DNA of 64,000 nucleotides, taken from IMG/VR virus record IMGVR_UViG_3300012204_000007, positions 1 through 64,000 of that record; one strand, given 5' to 3'. This DNA is from a virus. The translations under genes and the position numbers were made by a program. This document shows, in pieces, positions 11,027 to 34,174 of this stretch. The notes under the pieces were generated by a model. The model did not search any database. It was not told where the DNA came from and saw nothing but the letters and a program-made list of their open reading frames with translations. The number at the start of each line of letters is the position of its first letter. Within the stretch, counting starts at the first letter, position 1.

Positions 11027-11065
11027 GGCTTGACATACCGGCCCCGGTAGTGTAGAGTAGTACTT

Positions 11066-11856
11066 GTTGGTGGGCGAAGCCGCACCAACCAAATTATTCT
11101 AAAAATAAATAATGAAACAACGTCGTCTGGGACGATATGGTTGGGTGACCAACTGAAAGGAGGGCTGGCAGCCTTCCACCTAGCAATAGGCAAATCCAGA
11201 CAAGGCTAGTCTTTAGGCAATCGTTACGGCGGTTGTAGGAGAACAAAGCAGCCCCGTCCGAGAGCATCTGCGGAGGACACCCGGTAGGGTAAAAGGGAAT
11301 ACATGCGAAACTCCAATAGACTAAGTGAGATACTAAGTGCGAGGCTGCAACCAAGTGCGGGTATCATGAAACCATAGTGGGGATAGACATATCCTGACAA
11401 CGGTCACAGATTGTGAGTAGTCGCAAGCGAAAGCATATGATGGAGTGAAGCATTTTGTAATCCAAAAGGTTACGGAACTTCATGGAGAAGCACTTCGTCT
11501 GCCAAACCCCTAGCGGGACGGGTTGCCCCGCTCTTTTAATATGGATATACTAAAGCAAAAGACTTCTCCCGTCACAAGTCGATAGCGTCTTAATGGCTGA
11601 CCGTAAGGAATCAGCCCACGAGGAAGGCCGCAAGCCCAATCGTGTTGGTGTGCAAGTAGTGCAGTTTAGAGATTTAGCGGTCTCTCTACGAAACAAAAGC
11701 AGCCGAGTAGACTGTGATGTAAAGGGTGCTGGCCTTAAGCCAGTAGACGCGGTTCGTACGGTAGGAATACCGTGGATACGTTGGGAATCAATAATCCAAC
11801 CAAAGCGAATCATGTATGGGTTGAGTCCAGGCCCACACAACGCTCCCTCGGGAGCG
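11066..11856 (+). ncRNA. large structured RNA, GOLLD-like
   Basis: about 790 nt without a credible ORF, own promoter, many GNRA-capped hairpins, within tRNA cluster. Confidence 0.65.
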
Positions 11857-28372: not shown

Positions 28373-28548
28373 TAACAGAACGCATAGCATATCTATTGTT
28401 TGAGCGTCAGGCTAAGACTTATGCCGATGATGATAATATAGTGGATACCGCGTTCATCTGGCAGACGGAAGATGGCGTCAGAGAGTTCTGGATAGAAGAG
28501 GCCACAGCCATCTTAGGATGGCTCGGAATTAAGGATAAAACATTATGA
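28369..28548 (+). CDS. hypothetical protein
   Basis: ATGA overlaps both sides. Confidence 0.6.
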   Translation: MITERIAYLLFERQAKTYADDDNIVDTAFIWQTEDGVREFWIEEATAILGWLGIKDKTL

Positions 28549-29114
28549 CTAAGTTAACCATTATGCGTGGCGTGTCAGGTTCTGGCAAGTCTACCTGGGC
28601 AGACTCCCAGTTCGGTGCCACCGTCGTATCTAGAGACCGTCTGCGCGTTGCACTGTTCGGTTCTGACGGCGTAGATTATTACCAATCTCCCAATCTGCGC
28701 GCTCGTGAGGACCTGATTACTGAGGTCGAGCACGCCGCTATTCGCACGGGGCTGGCTGCTGGCAACCACGTAATTTCTGATAATACCAACATCGAGCCGA
28801 AGTACATGAAATCAATTGTTAAAATTGCTCATGATGCTGACGCCGAGGTCGAAGTTCAGGTCGTTGATATCACACTTAACGAGGCTCTTACTCGTAATGC
28901 TGAGCGAGCCCTGGGTGGCGGTCGTAATGTACCTGACTCTACTATTAAAAAGCAATTTGAGCGATTCAGGCAAACTCGCAATTGGGTGCCGCCTTTGCGA
29001 CCCGCGCTTCCTAAACCGTACAACGGTACGCCCGGTAAGCCAAAGGCGTTTATGGTTGACCTTGACGGCACTCTGGCGCATCGGACTTGTCCGGTCCATC
29101 AATCTATGGTATAA
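28545..29114 (+). CDS. pseT: polynucleotide kinase, N-terminal part (kinase plus phosphatase motif I)
   Basis: GVSGSGKST P-loop, SRD, DNTN; DLDGT near the end. Confidence 0.88.
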   Translation: MTKLTIMRGVSGSGKSTWADSQFGATVVSRDRLRVALFGSDGVDYYQSPNLRAREDLITEVEHAAIRTGLAAGNHVISDNTNIEPKYMKSIVKIAHDADAEVEVQVVDITLNEALTRNAERALGGGRNVPDSTIKKQFERFRQTRNWVPPLRPALPKPYNGTPGKPKAFMVDLDGTLAHRTCPVHQSMV

Positions 29115-29121
29115 TGAATGT

Positions 29122-29646
29122 ATGGCTCACCAATTAGTAGGACAAACATTCGGTATGTTAACAGTTACGGAGAAAACAGACGAGCGCTCTCCGAGCAAGA
29201 AAGTCATCTGGATGGTGTCTTGTATCTGTGGCGGTTCCGCGAGAGTAACCACCGCCGACCTGTTGCGTAGTGATGGAAAGGCTAGGGTGTCCTGCGGGTG
29301 CATGAACTTTCGAAAAGGTCAAGAAAGTTCAAATTGGAAAAGCCCCAATGCCATCTCTGTGAAATATTGGAATGCCGTTCGAACCTCGGCTTCTCGGAGA
29401 AATTTTGATTTTAATATTACTATAGAATACGCATTTCAGCAATTCACTGGTTCGTGCTCTCTCACCGGCCTGCCCATTGAATTAAATTCAACAGCATCTA
29501 TTGATAGAATTAATTCCGCACTTGGATATGTCGAGGGTAATATTCAGTGGTTGCATAAAGATATCAATAGGCTAAAAAGCAATTGGCCCGAAGATAAATT
29601 CGTAGAACTATGCAGAAAGGTTGTGAAACATGCAGAAGGCCATTGA
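29122..29646 (+). mobile_element. HNH homing endonuclease inserted in PNK gene
   Basis: GQTFGMLTV, CICG, SCGC, SIDRI...GY..GN..W...IN; own promoter TTGTCC-N17-TATAAT. Confidence 0.85.
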
Positions 29647-30049
29647 ACCTGGATGTACGTGTCGCTCTCCGTTCGACTGGGCGCGGGTAGGCGAAGACGA
29701 TGTAGATGTCGTAATTGCCGAACTGGTTAATGTATTGGCATCTACCAATTTTGCATTAGACATGGGTCATTATAAGGTTATTGTCATGTCTGGTAGAGAT
29801 GCTGTCTGTCGGGATGAGACAATGGAATGGTTAGACAACGCTGGTATTCAATGGGATTATCTATTCATGCGTGCAGAAGGTGACAACCGTCCTGACAATA
29901 TCGTAAAGGCTGAACTATTTGATACTGATGTTCGTGACAACTTTGATATTCAGTTTGTCATTGATGACCGCTGGCAGGTTTGCAAGATGTGGCTACAGAT
30001 GGGTCTAAAGGTTCTCAATGTGTCTGGACTAGACCGTGGCGAGTTCTGA
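29630..30049 (+). CDS. pseT: polynucleotide kinase, C-terminal HAD 3'-phosphatase part
   Basis: RSPFDW, SGR, MRAEGDNRPD..VK, DDR; GAAAGG RBS. Confidence 0.85.
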   Translation: MQKAIEPGCTCRSPFDWARVGEDDVDVVIAELVNVLASTNFALDMGHYKVIVMSGRDAVCRDETMEWLDNAGIQWDYLFMRAEGDNRPDNIVKAELFDTDVRDNFDIQFVIDDRWQVCKMWLQMGLKVLNVSGLDRGEF

Positions 30050-30254
30050 TTGCCGTTCTAAATCGCCGGTATTGGTACAGGATATGCTTGGGCTATCCTG
30101 TACCAAGCCGAGAGGGCATAAAAGTAGATTTCATTCTAATCCTCAATCAAAGAAACGATGGACTGGCGGTATTAAAACGGTTCCATCTTGGGAAATTGTT
30201 GATGATGGATATATGAGCCAAGCCGATTGGGATACTTGGGGACGATTGCTATGA
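30036..30254 (+). CDS. small Cys/His protein
   Basis: C..C...GH...H motif. Confidence 0.55.
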   Translation: MASSDCRSKSPVLVQDMLGLSCTKPRGHKSRFHSNPQSKKRWTGGIKTVPSWEIVDDGYMSQADWDTWGRLL

Positions 30255-30502
30255 CCAATTCTAATATACAAATAACATTTACGAATGGTCAATTTATAAA
30301 GCCTGCTGTTACATCAAATGGTAATGGTCTCTTAGATTTCAATACTCACGCTAAACCATTACCGTGTTATGTCAGGAAGGGCGGACCTAAATCACGTATC
30401 TACTGTGAGGTATTCAAACATGTACCGCATGAGTTACACTGTGGTAGGTCTCGCACAGGTAGATGGTGGTCATGGGTTGACAAGCCGCTGCCGGTAGTGT
30501 AG
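30251..30502 (+). CDS. small Cys/His protein
   Basis: ATGA overlap; C..C...H...H motif. Confidence 0.55.
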   Translation: MTNSNIQITFTNGQFIKPAVTSNGNGLLDFNTHAKPLPCYVRKGGPKSRIYCEVFKHVPHELHCGRSRTGRWWSWVDKPLPVV

Positions 30503-30512
30503 AGTAGTTCTT

Positions 30513-30970
30513 GTTGGAGAGGAAAGCAGCCGTGAGGTTAAGAGCCTTGGCAATGAGACTCTTCAACAAAGTCTGAAAGCCACAAAGTGCCGTGGTTAGT
30601 AGGACAAAAGTATAGGGTTTGAGCCCCTAACATGTGATTAAAGGGTACGCACTTGTCACCGCTGTGCATGAGTTTGCTACTTAATGACAGGCCCGGTGGC
30701 CGGTATAGATAGGTGGAGAAATCTTAGACCGTTCGTTTCAGTGACTAGGTCTAGGTAGGATGAAAGTAGTCGGGTTGCTGACCGTCAGAATTACCGTCCG
30801 TTCAGAGAAGCCAGAGATTCTATACCGGCTCCGCTTAGTATAAGTAATATGTAGTCTCATACAACGGCAAGCCTGCTACATAGATTCGGTTAAAGGGCAA
30901 ACCACATACTGCACCGATGAGTCAGGTATGTTTAGACGAGATAGCCGAATCACTCACACTTGCTCATAAC
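30513..30970 (+). ncRNA. unidentified large structured RNA (about 460 nt)
   Basis: ORF-free, own promoter, several long helices. Confidence 0.65.
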
Positions 30971-30988
30971 TAGTAGATGGAGATAACA

Positions 30989-31201
30989 ATGGTTACCGAA
31001 GAAATTATTCAGGATTGCATTGAGAATCCCGTGCGGAGCGTAAACCACGACTTTACTCCTGAGCAGGTTGCTCAGTATGGCTCTATGTTCGCCAAGGGCC
31101 GCAGCCTCTATGACAATCTTCGTACTAAGTGCGAGATTGGTCACGATGAGGCTTTTCAGATTTCTGCCGAATGCTTTGGCATTCGCCCTCGTACTCGATA
31201 A
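30989..31201 (+). CDS. hypothetical protein
   Basis: GGAG RBS. Confidence 0.65.
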   Translation: MVTEEIIQDCIENPVRSVNHDFTPEQVAQYGSMFAKGRSLYDNLRTKCEIGHDEAFQISAECFGIRPRTR

Positions 31202-31222
31202 CAAAATTCGAAAGGAACCGTT

Positions 31223-33232
31223 TTGATTCCCAATGCTGTTGACACCGTAGATGTCACATCAAACATGACCGATGAGGCTGTTCCGTTCTCTGTTGATGAG
31301 AATGGTCTAGTCAAGTTGATGAGTGTGTTGACCAATCTCTATTCTGACCCAGAGGGCGCGGTGGTCCGCGAATACCTCACCAATGGTCTTGACTCTCAGA
31401 CCGAGGCATTGCGAACCGTCCCCGGTTTTGTATGGCGTCCTATCGAGGTTACCACGCCTTCTTACTTCAACACAGAGTATAAGGTCCGTGACTTTGGCCT
31501 TGGCATGAACGCAAACGATATTGCCAACACCTATTCACGATACCTTACTTCCACCAAGGAATCGAGTCAGTTTGAGACCGGTATGCTTGGTCTCGGTAGC
31601 AAGTGTGCTCTGACCTATACCAGTCAGTTCAATATTGTTGGCTGGAAGGATGGCGTTAAGACTAGCGCCATTATCTCTCAGGATAGTTCAGGCATTCCTG
31701 TGTTCCGTATTGTTGATACCCGCGCCACCGACGAGCCCAACGGCGTAGAGATTTCTATTCCCGTGCGAGAGCGCAACTCGTTTGCTGAGAAGACCGCACA
31801 CTTTCTTAAGTTCTGGAAGGATGGCCAGGTTCTTGTTAATGGAGAAGAGCCGGTAAAGCACGGATGGCAGGAGGTCAAGCCTGGTGTTTTCATTATTGAG
31901 CGGCCTAGCAACTCTTATCGTACGCAATTGCCTAAGTCATACATCGTAATGGGTAATGTTGCCTATCCGATTGATGATGAGTTCATCAATGTCGACCTGC
32001 GCAACTGCTACACAGGCTTCGCCGCCTATGTTGAAATGGGCGCGGTAGACTTTCCTCCTAGCCGCGAGCAGTTGTTCTATAATAACCGCACCAAGGCAGT
32101 TATTGAGAAGGTCAGCGCAGGTCTATTTGAACTTCTGCTAAAGACAAAGTTGGATGAAGTTACTAGTGCGCCAGACCATCGGAGCGCTTGGCATCGGTAT
32201 AATGCGTTATCTTACTACTTCAAGAACACAAAGGCTGCGAAGGAACTTACCTATAAAGGTGACGAGTTCGTAGACAACGTTCTGCATGATACGCGATATC
32301 TGCATTGGAATCTACAGGGCATTAGCAAGATATCAGCAGGCAGTTATATTGCCTTGTCTAATATCTTCGGTATAAAGAACGATGTTGTAAGAAATAATGT
32401 TATCTTTGTTACCGGCCTTGATGATGATGTTAACCCTCATGCTTCTTTTAAGAAGAAGATTAACTATTACATGACCGAGAATGGTATGTCAGCGGGACAT
32501 GCCTACCTCATGAATGATGATGTTGACTCTATCTGGTTGAAGCAGGTGCCTCGTGTAACCGCTGATACCATTAAGGCTATCAAGATTCCTAGGACGCCCT
32601 CTAGTGGTCCGCGTGATGTTCCTACCTATGATGTATATTCAATTGAGGCGGATGGAAATGTTAAGTACAATGCTCTTACCGCTGTGTCTGTACCGACTGG
32701 TAAAAAATTGGTTTATATCAGCCCGCAGGAAATCAAGGAATCCTATAGGATGAACGGTTGTACGCCAAACGAACTCGTGAAGACTCTAGGCAAGCATTAC
32801 ATTCTTGTTGTTCTGGCTAAGAACCGTTTTGATAAGTTTTTGCGTAACCACAAGGCCAGTACGGTGAGCGGTGCTTTACAGGATGTTCTAGACTCTTATA
32901 TCTCGAAAATCACAAAGGTTGAGTCTACGATGGCCGGTATGCAATATGAAGAGAAGCGATTCTTCAAGGCTATTCAGGCCGACTCACTTAAGGACCCTGA
33001 CCTGCGTAAGTTGGCTATAGCAGTTCAATCAAGCACAGGTAATAAGTCAAACTATGAGAAGGCGCATAGCGTTTATCAGTTTGGTAGGCGCATAGGACTT
33101 CATTTGAAAATGCCTGAGGCCAAGCCAATATTCAGGCTTTCAGATGCCTACCCTCTGATTAACGTCGGTAGTAGGGCTCCGAGGAACCACGTAGTGCTTT
33201 ACTGTAACGCAGTATACAGCGCTAAATCGTAA
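31223..33232 (+). CDS. rIIA: rIIA-like protein (GHKL ATPase N-terminus)
   Basis: LYSDPEGAVVREYLTNGLD, VRDFGLGM, STK, GLGSK. Confidence 0.88.
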   Translation: MIPNAVDTVDVTSNMTDEAVPFSVDENGLVKLMSVLTNLYSDPEGAVVREYLTNGLDSQTEALRTVPGFVWRPIEVTTPSYFNTEYKVRDFGLGMNANDIANTYSRYLTSTKESSQFETGMLGLGSKCALTYTSQFNIVGWKDGVKTSAIISQDSSGIPVFRIVDTRATDEPNGVEISIPVRERNSFAEKTAHFLKFWKDGQVLVNGEEPVKHGWQEVKPGVFIIERPSNSYRTQLPKSYIVMGNVAYPIDDEFINVDLRNCYTGFAAYVEMGAVDFPPSREQLFYNNRTKAVIEKVSAGLFELLLKTKLDEVTSAPDHRSAWHRYNALSYYFKNTKAAKELTYKGDEFVDNVLHDTRYLHWNLQGISKISAGSYIALSNIFGIKNDVVRNNVIFVTGLDDDVNPHASFKKKINYYMTENGMSAGHAYLMNDDVDSIWLKQVPRVTADTIKAIKIPRTPSSGPRDVPTYDVYSIEADGNVKYNALTAVSVPTGKKLVYISPQEIKESYRMNGCTPNELVKTLGKHYILVVLAKNRFDKFLRNHKASTVSGALQDVLDSYISKITKVESTMAGMQYEEKRFFKAIQADSLKDPDLRKLAIAVQSSTGNKSNYEKAHSVYQFGRRIGLHLKMPEAKPIFRLSDAYPLINVGSRAPRNHVVLYCNAVYSAKS

Positions 33233-33334: not shown

Positions 33335-34174
33335 ATGAGTTTAAAGTTTAATCTTGTGCGACACGATGATTCTGCAAACATCACGGTCGTTGTCGATGGA
33401 GAGATGTTTGTTGCAGACGACCAGCATCCACTCTTTGATGAAATTATTGAGTTGGCCGTTGGTGGCTATGAGGGTGTTGTAGAATTGTTTGATACCTCTC
33501 GCCGCGTTGCTGAGCGCTTTGAAGACCTGAGCGACCGCGTGCGAGTTGCTAATTCACGAGTCTACGTAGACCAGACCGAGGTCGAAGACGCTTATACCGC
33601 GCAGGTTGTGCGTTTCTTGGAGGAAGACCTAGACGACTGGCAGCCTATTGTCAACTTTCTGGAAAAGGTCTACTCTAACACCAACGAGGATATCCGAGAG
33701 AACCTTTCTCGTTGGCTAGATGCCGAGCGCTTCACCATTCTGCCAAATGGCAATATCCTTGGGTATCGTGGTCTAAACGCCAATTATACCAGCAAGCATG
33801 CTGGGCCGGGTATCGTAAATGGTGTTGCTGTCAATGGTAACCTCGACAACAGCGTTGGCAACACTGTTGAGATGGACGCGAGCGCGGTCGAGCACAACCC
33901 GAGCGTTGGTTGTTCTGTAGGGCTACACGTTGGAACCTATGAATATGCCAAGCGTTGGGCCGGTAACGGCGTGGTGGTTAACGTCGAGGTTGACCCCCGT
34001 CATGTGCGTAGCGTTCCCTACGAGTGCAATGGTGCTAAGATGCGTGTCAGCAAGTACGTCGTGCTCGACACCGTAGCGCAGAAGTTGGTTACCGCCGTCG
34101 ATTACTCTGATTACGATTATAATGAGTATGACGACGACGATGACGATGACAATTACTATGGCTACGACTACTGA
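33335..34174 (+). CDS. rIIB: rIIB-like protein
   Basis: follows rIIA; NFLEK, CSVGLHVG, SVPYEC...KMRV. Confidence 0.88.
   Translation: MSLKFNLVRHDDSANITVVVDGEMFVADDQHPLFDEIIELAVGGYEGVVELFDTSRRVAERFEDLSDRVRVANSRVYVDQTEVEDAYTAQVVRFLEEDLDDWQPIVNFLEKVYSNTNEDIRENLSRWLDAERFTILPNGNILGYRGLNANYTSKHAGPGIVNGVAVNGNLDNSVGNTVEMDASAVEHNPSVGCSVGLHVGTYEYAKRWAGNGVVVNVEVDPRHVRSVPYECNGAKMRVSKYVVLDTVAQKLVTAVDYSDYDYNEYDDDDDDDNYYGYDY

Follow-up and report, generated by a model that had tools for sequence, protein, structure and literature searches.

Does the ORF-free stretch of about 460 nucleotides ahead of rIIA in this phage encode one large structured RNA, and does that RNA belong to a catalogued family? A sequence-only reading had proposed a candidate new or highly diverged large phage noncoding RNA (ncRNA) at 30513-30970, with five helices and a promoter of the type that precedes the tRNA and GOLLD-like units. 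The window analyzed here, 64,000 nt in length, opens an IMG/VR record of 120,830 bp (CheckV completeness 94%). The presence of a functional RNA element in the region is well supported. It is a real, strand-specific and conserved RNA module of ~175 nt inside the 460-nt ORF-free leader. Composed of known motifs and outside the catalogued families, it is a candidate for a new family.

An ORF-free gap between an RNA island and the rII genes

The first 25 kb of the window hold 34 tRNA genes, a tmRNA and a GOLLD RNA, followed by an Rnl1-like RNA ligase and then a polynucleotide kinase/phosphatase (PNKP), the last two being candidate tRNA repair genes. Together these make up an RNA island of ~28 kb, and the studied region lies at its end. 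The genes that follow are orf74, rIIA, rIIB, a phosphoesterase gene and a WhiB-like gene, the last identified by eye from its translation. The PNKP is split over two ORFs (span 28545-30049), with an HNH/endonuclease VII-like ORF overlapping both. The genes next to the region are the following.

28545-29114: kinase ORF of PNKP
28816-29646: HNH/endonuclease VII-like ORF, overlapping both the kinase and the phosphatase ORFs
29630-30049: phosphatase ORF of PNKP
30977-31201, + strand: orf74, first gene downstream; probable start ATG 30989 after GGAG
31223-33232, + strand: rIIA, matching a PHROGs family
33335-34174, + strand: rIIB, matching a PHROGs family

A homologue of orf74 (37% identical) sits directly upstream of rIIA in the related phage G001. 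The order rIIA-rIIB-phosphoesterase-WhiB is also found in Streptomyces phages of the Stanwilliamsviridae, whose rIIA is 31-34% identical; in the Streptomyces phages Muntaha and Coruscant, small ORFs are tightly packed ahead of rIIA and leave no gap. Three distant rIIA relatives occur in Actinomycetes MAGs (GTDB contigs searched with rIIA), and the sequencing runs that contain the stretch are soil metagenomes, with no RNA run listed among them. Based on this gene order, these relatives and the soil runs, the host is therefore probably an actinobacterium.

The description of the region as ORF-free holds, since no ORF of at least 30 aa is present on the + strand in 30503-30976. All six frames contain stops of all three kinds, and therefore recoding one stop opens no frame; a recoded or decayed ORF was rejected on this basis. 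The GC content of the region is 0.469, and that of the window is 0.467.

Scans with Rfam 15 agree with the earlier failure to recognize RNase P, tmRNA, a group I intron or a riboswitch, and extend it to GOLLD and ROOL. None of the 33 matches in the window falls in 30513-30970, and the region reaches no gathering cut-off for GOLLD, ROOL, RNase P, tmRNA, group I/II introns, riboswitches, T-box, SRP, 6S or Y RNA. A permissive scan of 30300-31200 (E up to 10) returned only RT-3 (17.3 bits) and the snoRNA sR44 (10.8 bits) inside the region. The RT-3 match (RF03068) spans the full model length at 30524-30641 with an E value of 0.13, its score standing against a cut-off of 40.5 bits. Because this weak score is not reproduced in positions 1-450 of the related locus L002 (E up to 10), it is treated as chance; no reverse transcriptase was seen near the region. 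An RNase P-like P4 pairing found by hand (GGAAAGCAGCC with GGCUCCGCUU) was rejected as well: its 3' partner is used in the 12-bp helix described below, it has no counterpart in L002 and Rfam gives no match. An SRP-like resemblance (GGAAGCAGCC) likewise has no Rfam match. For L002 and a second related locus, L029, Rfam scans gave nothing relevant, and no riboswitch or T-box match at E up to 10. Finally, among the papers listed on GOLLD in Streptomyces phages, kink-turn phage ncRNAs and Streptomyces phage tmRNA/rIIA, none was seen to describe such an element, which is short of proof that none has been described.

A shared promoter and a modular region

The region and its promoter can be divided into the following parts (z scores compare the fold with shuffled sequences).

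30477-30505, + strand: early promoter, TTGACA-17 nt-TAGAGT with an upstream TG (GGTAGTGTAGAGT); consensus-scan score 10/12
30511-30569, + strand: generic 5' leader hairpin, UUGUUGGAGAG/CUCUUCAACAA with one G-U, plus an inner hairpin; z -3.65
30571-30605, + strand: Element A, with stem GUCU/GGAC, internal loop GAA/AGUA, stem AGCCAC/GUGGUU and apical loop AAAGUGCC; z -2.62
30606-30693, + strand: linker, unconserved except for AGGCCCGG at its 3' end (30689-30696); z +0.36
30694-30833, + strand: kink-turn domain, a long helix capped by a consensus kink-turn (GGUGGAGAA / UUC-AGA-GAAGCC); z -2.82
30834-30975, + strand: 3' part, no U tract; z -0.64
30848-30882: hairpin TATGTAG/CTACATA of the 3' part
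30883-30951: hairpin GATTCGGTTA/TAGCCGAATC of the 3' part

For the pattern TTGACA-N15-19-TANNNT, 28 occurrences were counted in the window and 3.71 were expected. The promoter of the region is of the phage's strongest class. Together with the transcript start AGTWCTTGTTGG, it belongs to family D3, which has exactly four copies in the genome (at 11027, 17220, 24147 and 30474, with promoters at 11030, 17223, 24150 and 30477). The remaining three copies head the GOLLD, tRNA-Asn and tRNA-Leu units, which bears out the promoter type that had been claimed for the region. Each of the four promoter+CUUGUUGG units begins with a hairpin closed by UUGG/CCAA (CUUGUUGG...CCAAC). The combination of promoter, AGTWCTTGTTGG and UUGG/CCAA hairpin looks like a dedicated leader for RNA-gene units. 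In the region, the leader hairpin has a minimum free energy of -22.6 kcal/mol, and 0 of 200 shuffles fold as well.

Since the three sister units make stable RNAs (GOLLD and tRNAs), they favor a stand-alone RNA over a leader. Such an RNA would be a trans-acting, structured ncRNA of a new family, made like the GOLLD and tRNA units, cut from the primary transcript and serving as a scaffold or decoy, for example for an RNA-binding protein of the host or the phage. Its place at the end of the RNA island is in keeping with this explanation, and the island-then-module order is kept in G001, where the tRNA/GOLLD/tmRNA island lies at the opposite contig end in the same orientation. Like GOLLD (RF02032) and ROOL, the region is part of a phage RNA island with tRNAs, and the phage's own GOLLD copy (11438-11834) stands under the same promoter and leader. 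Unlike them, the region gives no model match at E up to 10 and its conserved part is ~175 nt versus their 400-800, and its similarity to the phage's own GOLLD unit is confined to the promoter and leader. In that unit, ~380 nt (11059-11437) separate the promoter/leader hairpin from the start of the Rfam GOLLD match; they are presumably the variable 5' half of GOLLD, outside the 416-position model.

Taken whole (476 nt), the region folds marginally better than its shuffles (z -1.95, 3 of 100 shuffles as good), and the minus strand has a z of -1.04. The five helices on which the sequence-only reading had drawn are all present at their positions. GCCGGTATAGA/TCTATACCGGC is a perfect 11-bp helix, and TTGTTGGAGAG/CTCTTCAACAA and GATTCGGTTA/TAGCCGAATC contain one G-U pair each; a perfect inverted repeat of at least 11 bp arises in 9 of 300 mononucleotide shuffles. 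The helices do not, however, describe one structured RNA: the first is the generic leader hairpin, and two of the five lie in the linker or the last ~140 nt. Stability above that of shuffles is restricted to the leader, Element A and the kink-turn domain, so that the structure signal is limited to ~235 nt, and conservation is limited to ~175 nt, about one third of the 460 bases. The region is thus modular rather than a single 460-nt fold, its linker and last ~140 nt being unconserved in L002 and thermodynamically ordinary. The L002 linker is ~30 nt shorter and cannot be aligned to that of the window, and nothing similar to the 3' part was found in L002, L029, L030 or L090. The loop of the 30848-30882 hairpin (30853-30869) is complementary, back to back, to the leader (30553-30560, 8 bp) and to Element A (30588-30596, 9 nt, 89%), and may engage in long-range pairing with both.

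No intrinsic terminator-like site was found on the + strand in 29500-31500, and no U runs follow the kink-turn helix in the window, L002 or L029. Between 30506 and rIIA, the + strand contains neither a terminator-like nor a further promoter-like site, and transcripts from 30477 should thus reach orf74-rIIA-rIIB. The idea of a new large phage ncRNA survives in part. Portions of the region are conserved as structure, with helix covariation and three-dimensional motifs; the lack of a terminator before orf74-rIIA counts against a separate transcript.

Two conserved modules in a mosaic locus

Relatives of rIIA are numerous at 43-52% identity on contigs of 114-124 kb, with one at 82%, and come mostly from Logan assemblies. 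Two rIIA alignments gave 26 and 44 loci in IMG/VR, with one near-clade contig only; a search of IMG/VR by rIIA alone returned no relatives. The metagenome contigs gave 65 loci, among which L028/L029, L030, L031 and L090 belong to the near clade. Upstream sequences were compared in four near-clade phages: G001 (locus L002), L029, L030 and L090. Identity of rIIA to that of the window is 48% in G001/L002, 53% in L029 and 58% in L030, and L029 is identical to L028 over the shared 315 nt. An nhmmer search with the whole region against 319 loci recovered only L002 and duplicates (E 3.2e-06). No similar DNA was found in INPHARED by blastn (distant), the Element A pattern had 0 matches in GTDB contigs and 14-mer scans of IMG/VR gave chance matches only. 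Contigs compared with the window were identical to it or reached its edges only, and no variants were found among them. Overall, the collection of homologues that had been suggested as a check of the RNA yielded the kink-turn hairpin in three sequences and Element A in two, the window being one of them in each case. The promoter of L002 is not visible because the G001 contig begins ~95 nt before the first conserved block.

Within Element A, a 28-nt block (30576-30603) is 96% identical to L002 96-123, in a phage whose rIIA is only 48% identical, and the predicted folds of the two sequences agree. The outer stem differs everywhere with pairing kept (GUCU/GGAC in the window versus AUCCC/GGGAU in L002), the inner stem is (A)GCCA(C)/(G)UGGU(U) in both phages and the 8-nt apical loop AAAGUGCC is invariant between them. 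In the predicted fold of the window, the internal loop places 5' GAA (30575-30577) opposite 3' AGUA (30598-30601); in L002, the second of the two sequences, AA is opposite AGUA. AGUA opposite GAA between two helices is the loop-E (bulged-G, sarcin-ricin-like) consensus, of which Element A, with its two sequences, is a candidate case. Inspection by hand showed a second possible partner for the 5' strand of the outer stem, an upstream segment separated from it by a 9-nt loop (AGACU/AGUCU in the window, GGGA/UCCC in L002); from two sequences, this is a hint at alternative conformers.

The second conserved module, the kink-turn domain, consists of the following elements in the window, with the corresponding core strands in the relatives.

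30694-30696 with 30831-30833: basal helix, followed by bulged U30697
30698-30709 with 30819-30830: 12-bp helix
UA / AGAGAU: internal loop between the 12-bp helix and the kink-turn
30712-30720: non-bulged strand of the kink-turn, GGU-G-GA-GAA
30801-30812: bulged strand of the kink-turn, UUC-AGA-GA-A-GCC
30721-30800: variable distal arm, including TAGACC/GGTCTA
L002 203-211 with 251-262: kink-turn strands
L029 1436-1446 with 1481-1494: kink-turn strands

According to pair tables by coordinate, the domain is built alike in the window, L002 and L029, with a basal helix of 3-4 bp, a one-nucleotide bulge, a helix of 12, 12 and 9 bp, respectively, an asymmetric internal loop and the core. The structural alignment was made by hand and with a coordinate script, MAFFT being unsuited to the 33-80-nt variable arm, and helix covariation was judged from the pair tables of three hairpin sequences. 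Standard pairs occupy all helix positions (15/15 in the window, 15/15 in L002 and 13/13 in L029). The long helix of L029 is unrelated in sequence (ACCGUGGG/CCCACGGU versus GGUAUAGA/UCUAUACC), and the window and L002 hold their 12 bp through offsetting one-base shifts. The kink-turn pairs are GC GC UG ga ga ag in all three, around a bulge of AGA (window), CGA (L002) or AGA (L029), and the 9+9-nt core is identical in the three, even at rIIA identities of 48-53%. At the second C-stem pair, the window and L002 share A-U, and L029 has G-C. Block 30689-30724 is 89% identical to L002 over 37 nt; the arm beyond the kink-turn measures 80, 33 and 34 nt in the window, L002 and L029 and varies in sequence too. 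At the sequence level, the three-nucleotide bulge, the tandem G·A/A·G pairs and the C and NC helices of a kink-turn are all present. The core fits the standard (Kt-7/SAM-I type) kink-turn, the motif being defined in PMC5061560 and its folding rule given in PMC4382518. A kink-turn is a building block and not a family, and the surrounding phage RNA matches no kink-turn-bearing family in Rfam.

The relatives differ in what surrounds this module, two recurrent features being the following.

L029 1532-1672 and L090 1034-1177: 47-aa ORF (MAN..VSID.DGDLAVGIGGGLTID.DGDLGIQIAPG) with a strong ribosome site
L002 293-345, L029 1946-1998 (= L028), L030 950-1002 and L090 1273-1325: pre-rIIA hairpin, ~50 nt

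In L029, the kink-turn hairpin ends 22 nt before the AAGGAG of the 47-aa ORF, which is conserved in L090 and has no homologue in G000 (the phage's own genome) or G001. The kink-turn hairpin of L029 is replaced in L090 by a plain one that shares its base (GGG-A-GCCGGUACC, z -4.96), and there too the 47-aa ORF comes directly afterwards. L030 has the promoter and leader of the window, with the hairpin in a short version, followed by 130 nt of different sequence and a 62-aa ORF. In all four relatives (L002, L029, L030 and L090), rIIA or the small ORFs ahead of it are closely preceded by a promoter and, just upstream of that, a further conserved hairpin; this hairpin is absent from the window's genome, and the pre-rIIA promoter was likewise not found in the window. 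In L002, the module is followed by the hairpin, a fresh promoter and an extra ORF before rIIA. The outer stem of the pre-rIIA hairpin covaries (GUCAGG/CCUGAC versus CUAGG/CCUAG) around an inner stem GAGGC/GCCUC; its loop contains an invariant, anti-Shine-Dalgarno-like CUCCUUUC, and GGGAACGCC comes after it. L029 also has a tRNA-like piece (1759-1936, ending GGUGGUUCGAAUCCACC...CCA) that L090, collinear in other respects, does not have; only at relaxed settings does ARAGORN predict a tRNA there, tRNA-Thr(cgt) with an 81-nt intron, and the Rfam match of the piece is to tRNA-Sec (18.5 bits, E 0.78).

The signature GGTGGAGRA...GAGAAGCC was searched as a regular expression in 2.9 Mb of loci plus G000. 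Over these loci and the IMG/VR scans, it occurs with a flanking helix of at least 9 bp only in the window, L002 and L029. All IMG/VR contigs were also scanned twice with gapped patterns, which returned 14 and 17 stretches; besides G001, 0 of the 30 other stretches has a flanking helix of at least 8 bp. Matches in L294, which has no flanking helix, and in L252, where the match sits in a tandem repeat of the GGTGGAGG motif, were judged to be chance. A generic kink-turn descriptor matches 165 times on both strands of the 2.9 Mb and is unspecific, and hence the claim rests on the shared core, synteny and helix.

The region might have no dedicated function and be a variable spacer that gathers hairpins (processing or termination signals, remnants of genes or mobile inserts), the kink-turn signature being an accident of one lineage. 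A mosaic locus that is different in each relative examined, a whole-region z of just -1.95, the many matches of the generic descriptor and the plain hairpin of L090 would all fit such a spacer. It is nonetheless clearly unlikely, given 28 nt at 96% identity and an identical core despite 48-53% rIIA identity, a helix that L029 keeps under changed sequence and the lack of the signature plus helix in the other 30 IMG/VR matches.

For the kink-turn domain, z is -2.82, -4.26 and -5.52 on the + strand of the window, L002 and L029, and -1.69, -2.62 and -5.50 on the minus strand, the + strand being better in two of the three. The G-U pairs and the strand-specific G·A core favor reading the module as a + strand RNA. 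An element acting at the DNA level (an origin, a packaging site or a protein-binding palindrome) would draw on the perfect 11-bp inverted repeat and on the equal folding of both L029 strands. This strand preference, seen also in the greater + strand stability in the window and L002, makes such an element very improbable, and the same holds for a decayed or recoded protein gene given the stops in every frame and a GC content next to that of the window.

All three kink-turns have A·G as their 3b·3n pair. According to McPhee et al. (PMC4382518), A·G is the best Mg2+-folding variant, present in 60% of SAM-I kink-turns and in <0.03% of protein-dependent U4 kink-turns; by this rule, the kink-turn of the window is predicted to fold with Mg2+. 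A search with PF01248 found no L7Ae-family protein in the phage genome G000 at E up to 1, and an L7Ae-dependent kink-turn regulator is disfavored on this ground and because A·G marks the self-folding class. Together, the A·G class and the lack of a phage L7Ae-family protein point to an architectural kink-turn that would serve a tertiary contact rather than a protein-operated switch.

An architectural kink-turn could also be part of a riboswitch-like sensor, whose aptamer (for a metabolite, an ion or a tRNA) would be made up of Element A and the kink-turn arm and in which exclusive pairings would switch downstream expression. A basal kink-turn combined with an AGUA/GAA loop-E-like loop in a 5' leader presumably resembles the lysine riboswitch and T-box Stem I/II. 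Unlike those leaders, the region has its two motifs in separate hairpins and in the opposite order. It contains no T-box sequence and, up to an E value of 10, matches none of the riboswitch or T-box models in Rfam. The alternative Element A pairing, found by hand in the window and L002, would provide the switch, although two sequences are insufficient to establish it. In its favor too, the L029 copy adjoins a ribosome-binding site, and the self-folding A·G class dominates in riboswitches (PMC4382518). Given that the site of the pocket beyond the kink-turn varies in length (80, 33 and 34 nt) and sequence and that L090 is without a kink-turn, a sensor of this kind is improbable.

A proposed place for the module in the early rII transcript

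The preferred reading, held tentatively with a probability of roughly 0.45, is that the region is the structured 5' part of the early orf74-rIIA-rIIB transcript and carries a new self-folding RNA module. The early transcript would start near 30512 and continue into orf74-rIIA-rIIB, its leader hairpin, as in every RNA-type unit, probably protecting or marking the 5' end. Two conserved modules would come next: Element A, with its loop-E-like internal loop and AAAGUGCC loop, and a 15-bp helix with the standard kink-turn cap. The A·G kink-turn would fold with Mg2+ and without protein, as is typical of the riboswitch and rRNA kink-turns that set up tertiary contacts, and may bend the distal arm back onto the basal helix or Element A. 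The resulting compact fold could be recognized by some partner or processing enzyme, and would influence, in cis, how stable the downstream message is or how it is processed or translated.

Several observations argue for this leader reading. The promoter is strong, no terminator or second promoter follows it and the pre-rIIA promoter of the relatives is missing in the window. In L029, the hairpin lies near the ribosome site of the 47-aa ORF, L090 has its plain hairpin at the same place and the promoter and leader hairpin of L030 precede a protein ORF. The conserved blocks, the kept helix pairs, the identical core, the A·G class and the + strand preference in two of three sequences count in its favor as well. 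T7 RNase III sites are phage early-mRNA processing and stabilizer hairpins. The kink-turn hairpin is like them in being long, in having an internal loop and in its position between genes or in the 5' UTR of an early polycistronic transcript, and it is substituted by a plain hairpin in L090. To our knowledge, no phage processing or stabilizer hairpin needs a kink-turn or a near-invariant companion hairpin. Conversely, the leader reading has to accommodate a kink-turn hairpin present in only three sequences and Element A in two, compared in a hand-made alignment, and a conservation of Element A (96%) far above the need of a stabilizer hairpin. The kink-turn also ends 145 nt before the orf74 start, too far for simple ribosome-site occlusion. 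In L002, the hairpin, promoter and extra ORF cut the module off from rIIA, and thus the module is not tied to one downstream gene.

The last point speaks for a stand-alone RNA, which ranks second and is possible, if unlikely. The near-invariance of Element A and the L002 module, which is followed by its own hairpin and then by a fresh promoter, are added there to the record of the other promoter+CUUGUUGG units, all three of which head stable RNA genes. Against it stand the lack of a terminator or defined 3' end in the window, the unconserved 3' 140 nt, the occurrence of the hairpin in a 5' UTR in L029 and L090, and the lack of a phage L7Ae-family protein. The leader reading is preferred.

A bolder proposal, and a doubtful one, is that Element A and the self-folding kink-turn arm represent a new class of compact sensor or decoy RNA in the RNA islands of large actinobacterial phages. 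As a sensor, the module would be a riboswitch-like leader that reads the state of a metabolite, an ion or tRNA and gates the early rII operon through exclusive Element A pairings. As a decoy, it would be bait for host RNA-targeting defence, placed beside the RNA ligase and PNKP genes.

If the module is only a leader or processing hairpin, the finding has the smaller value of a documented kink-turn in a phage 5' UTR. Tests of the module should be easy, because it is short (35 nt plus about 100-140 nt) and has the well-understood kink-turn at its center. Phages of this large, actinobacterial type have islands packed with tRNAs, tmRNA and GOLLD. The module, which stands under the promoter and leader shared by these units, with the RNA ligase/PNKP genes on one side and the early rII operon on the other, would be a new component of such islands.
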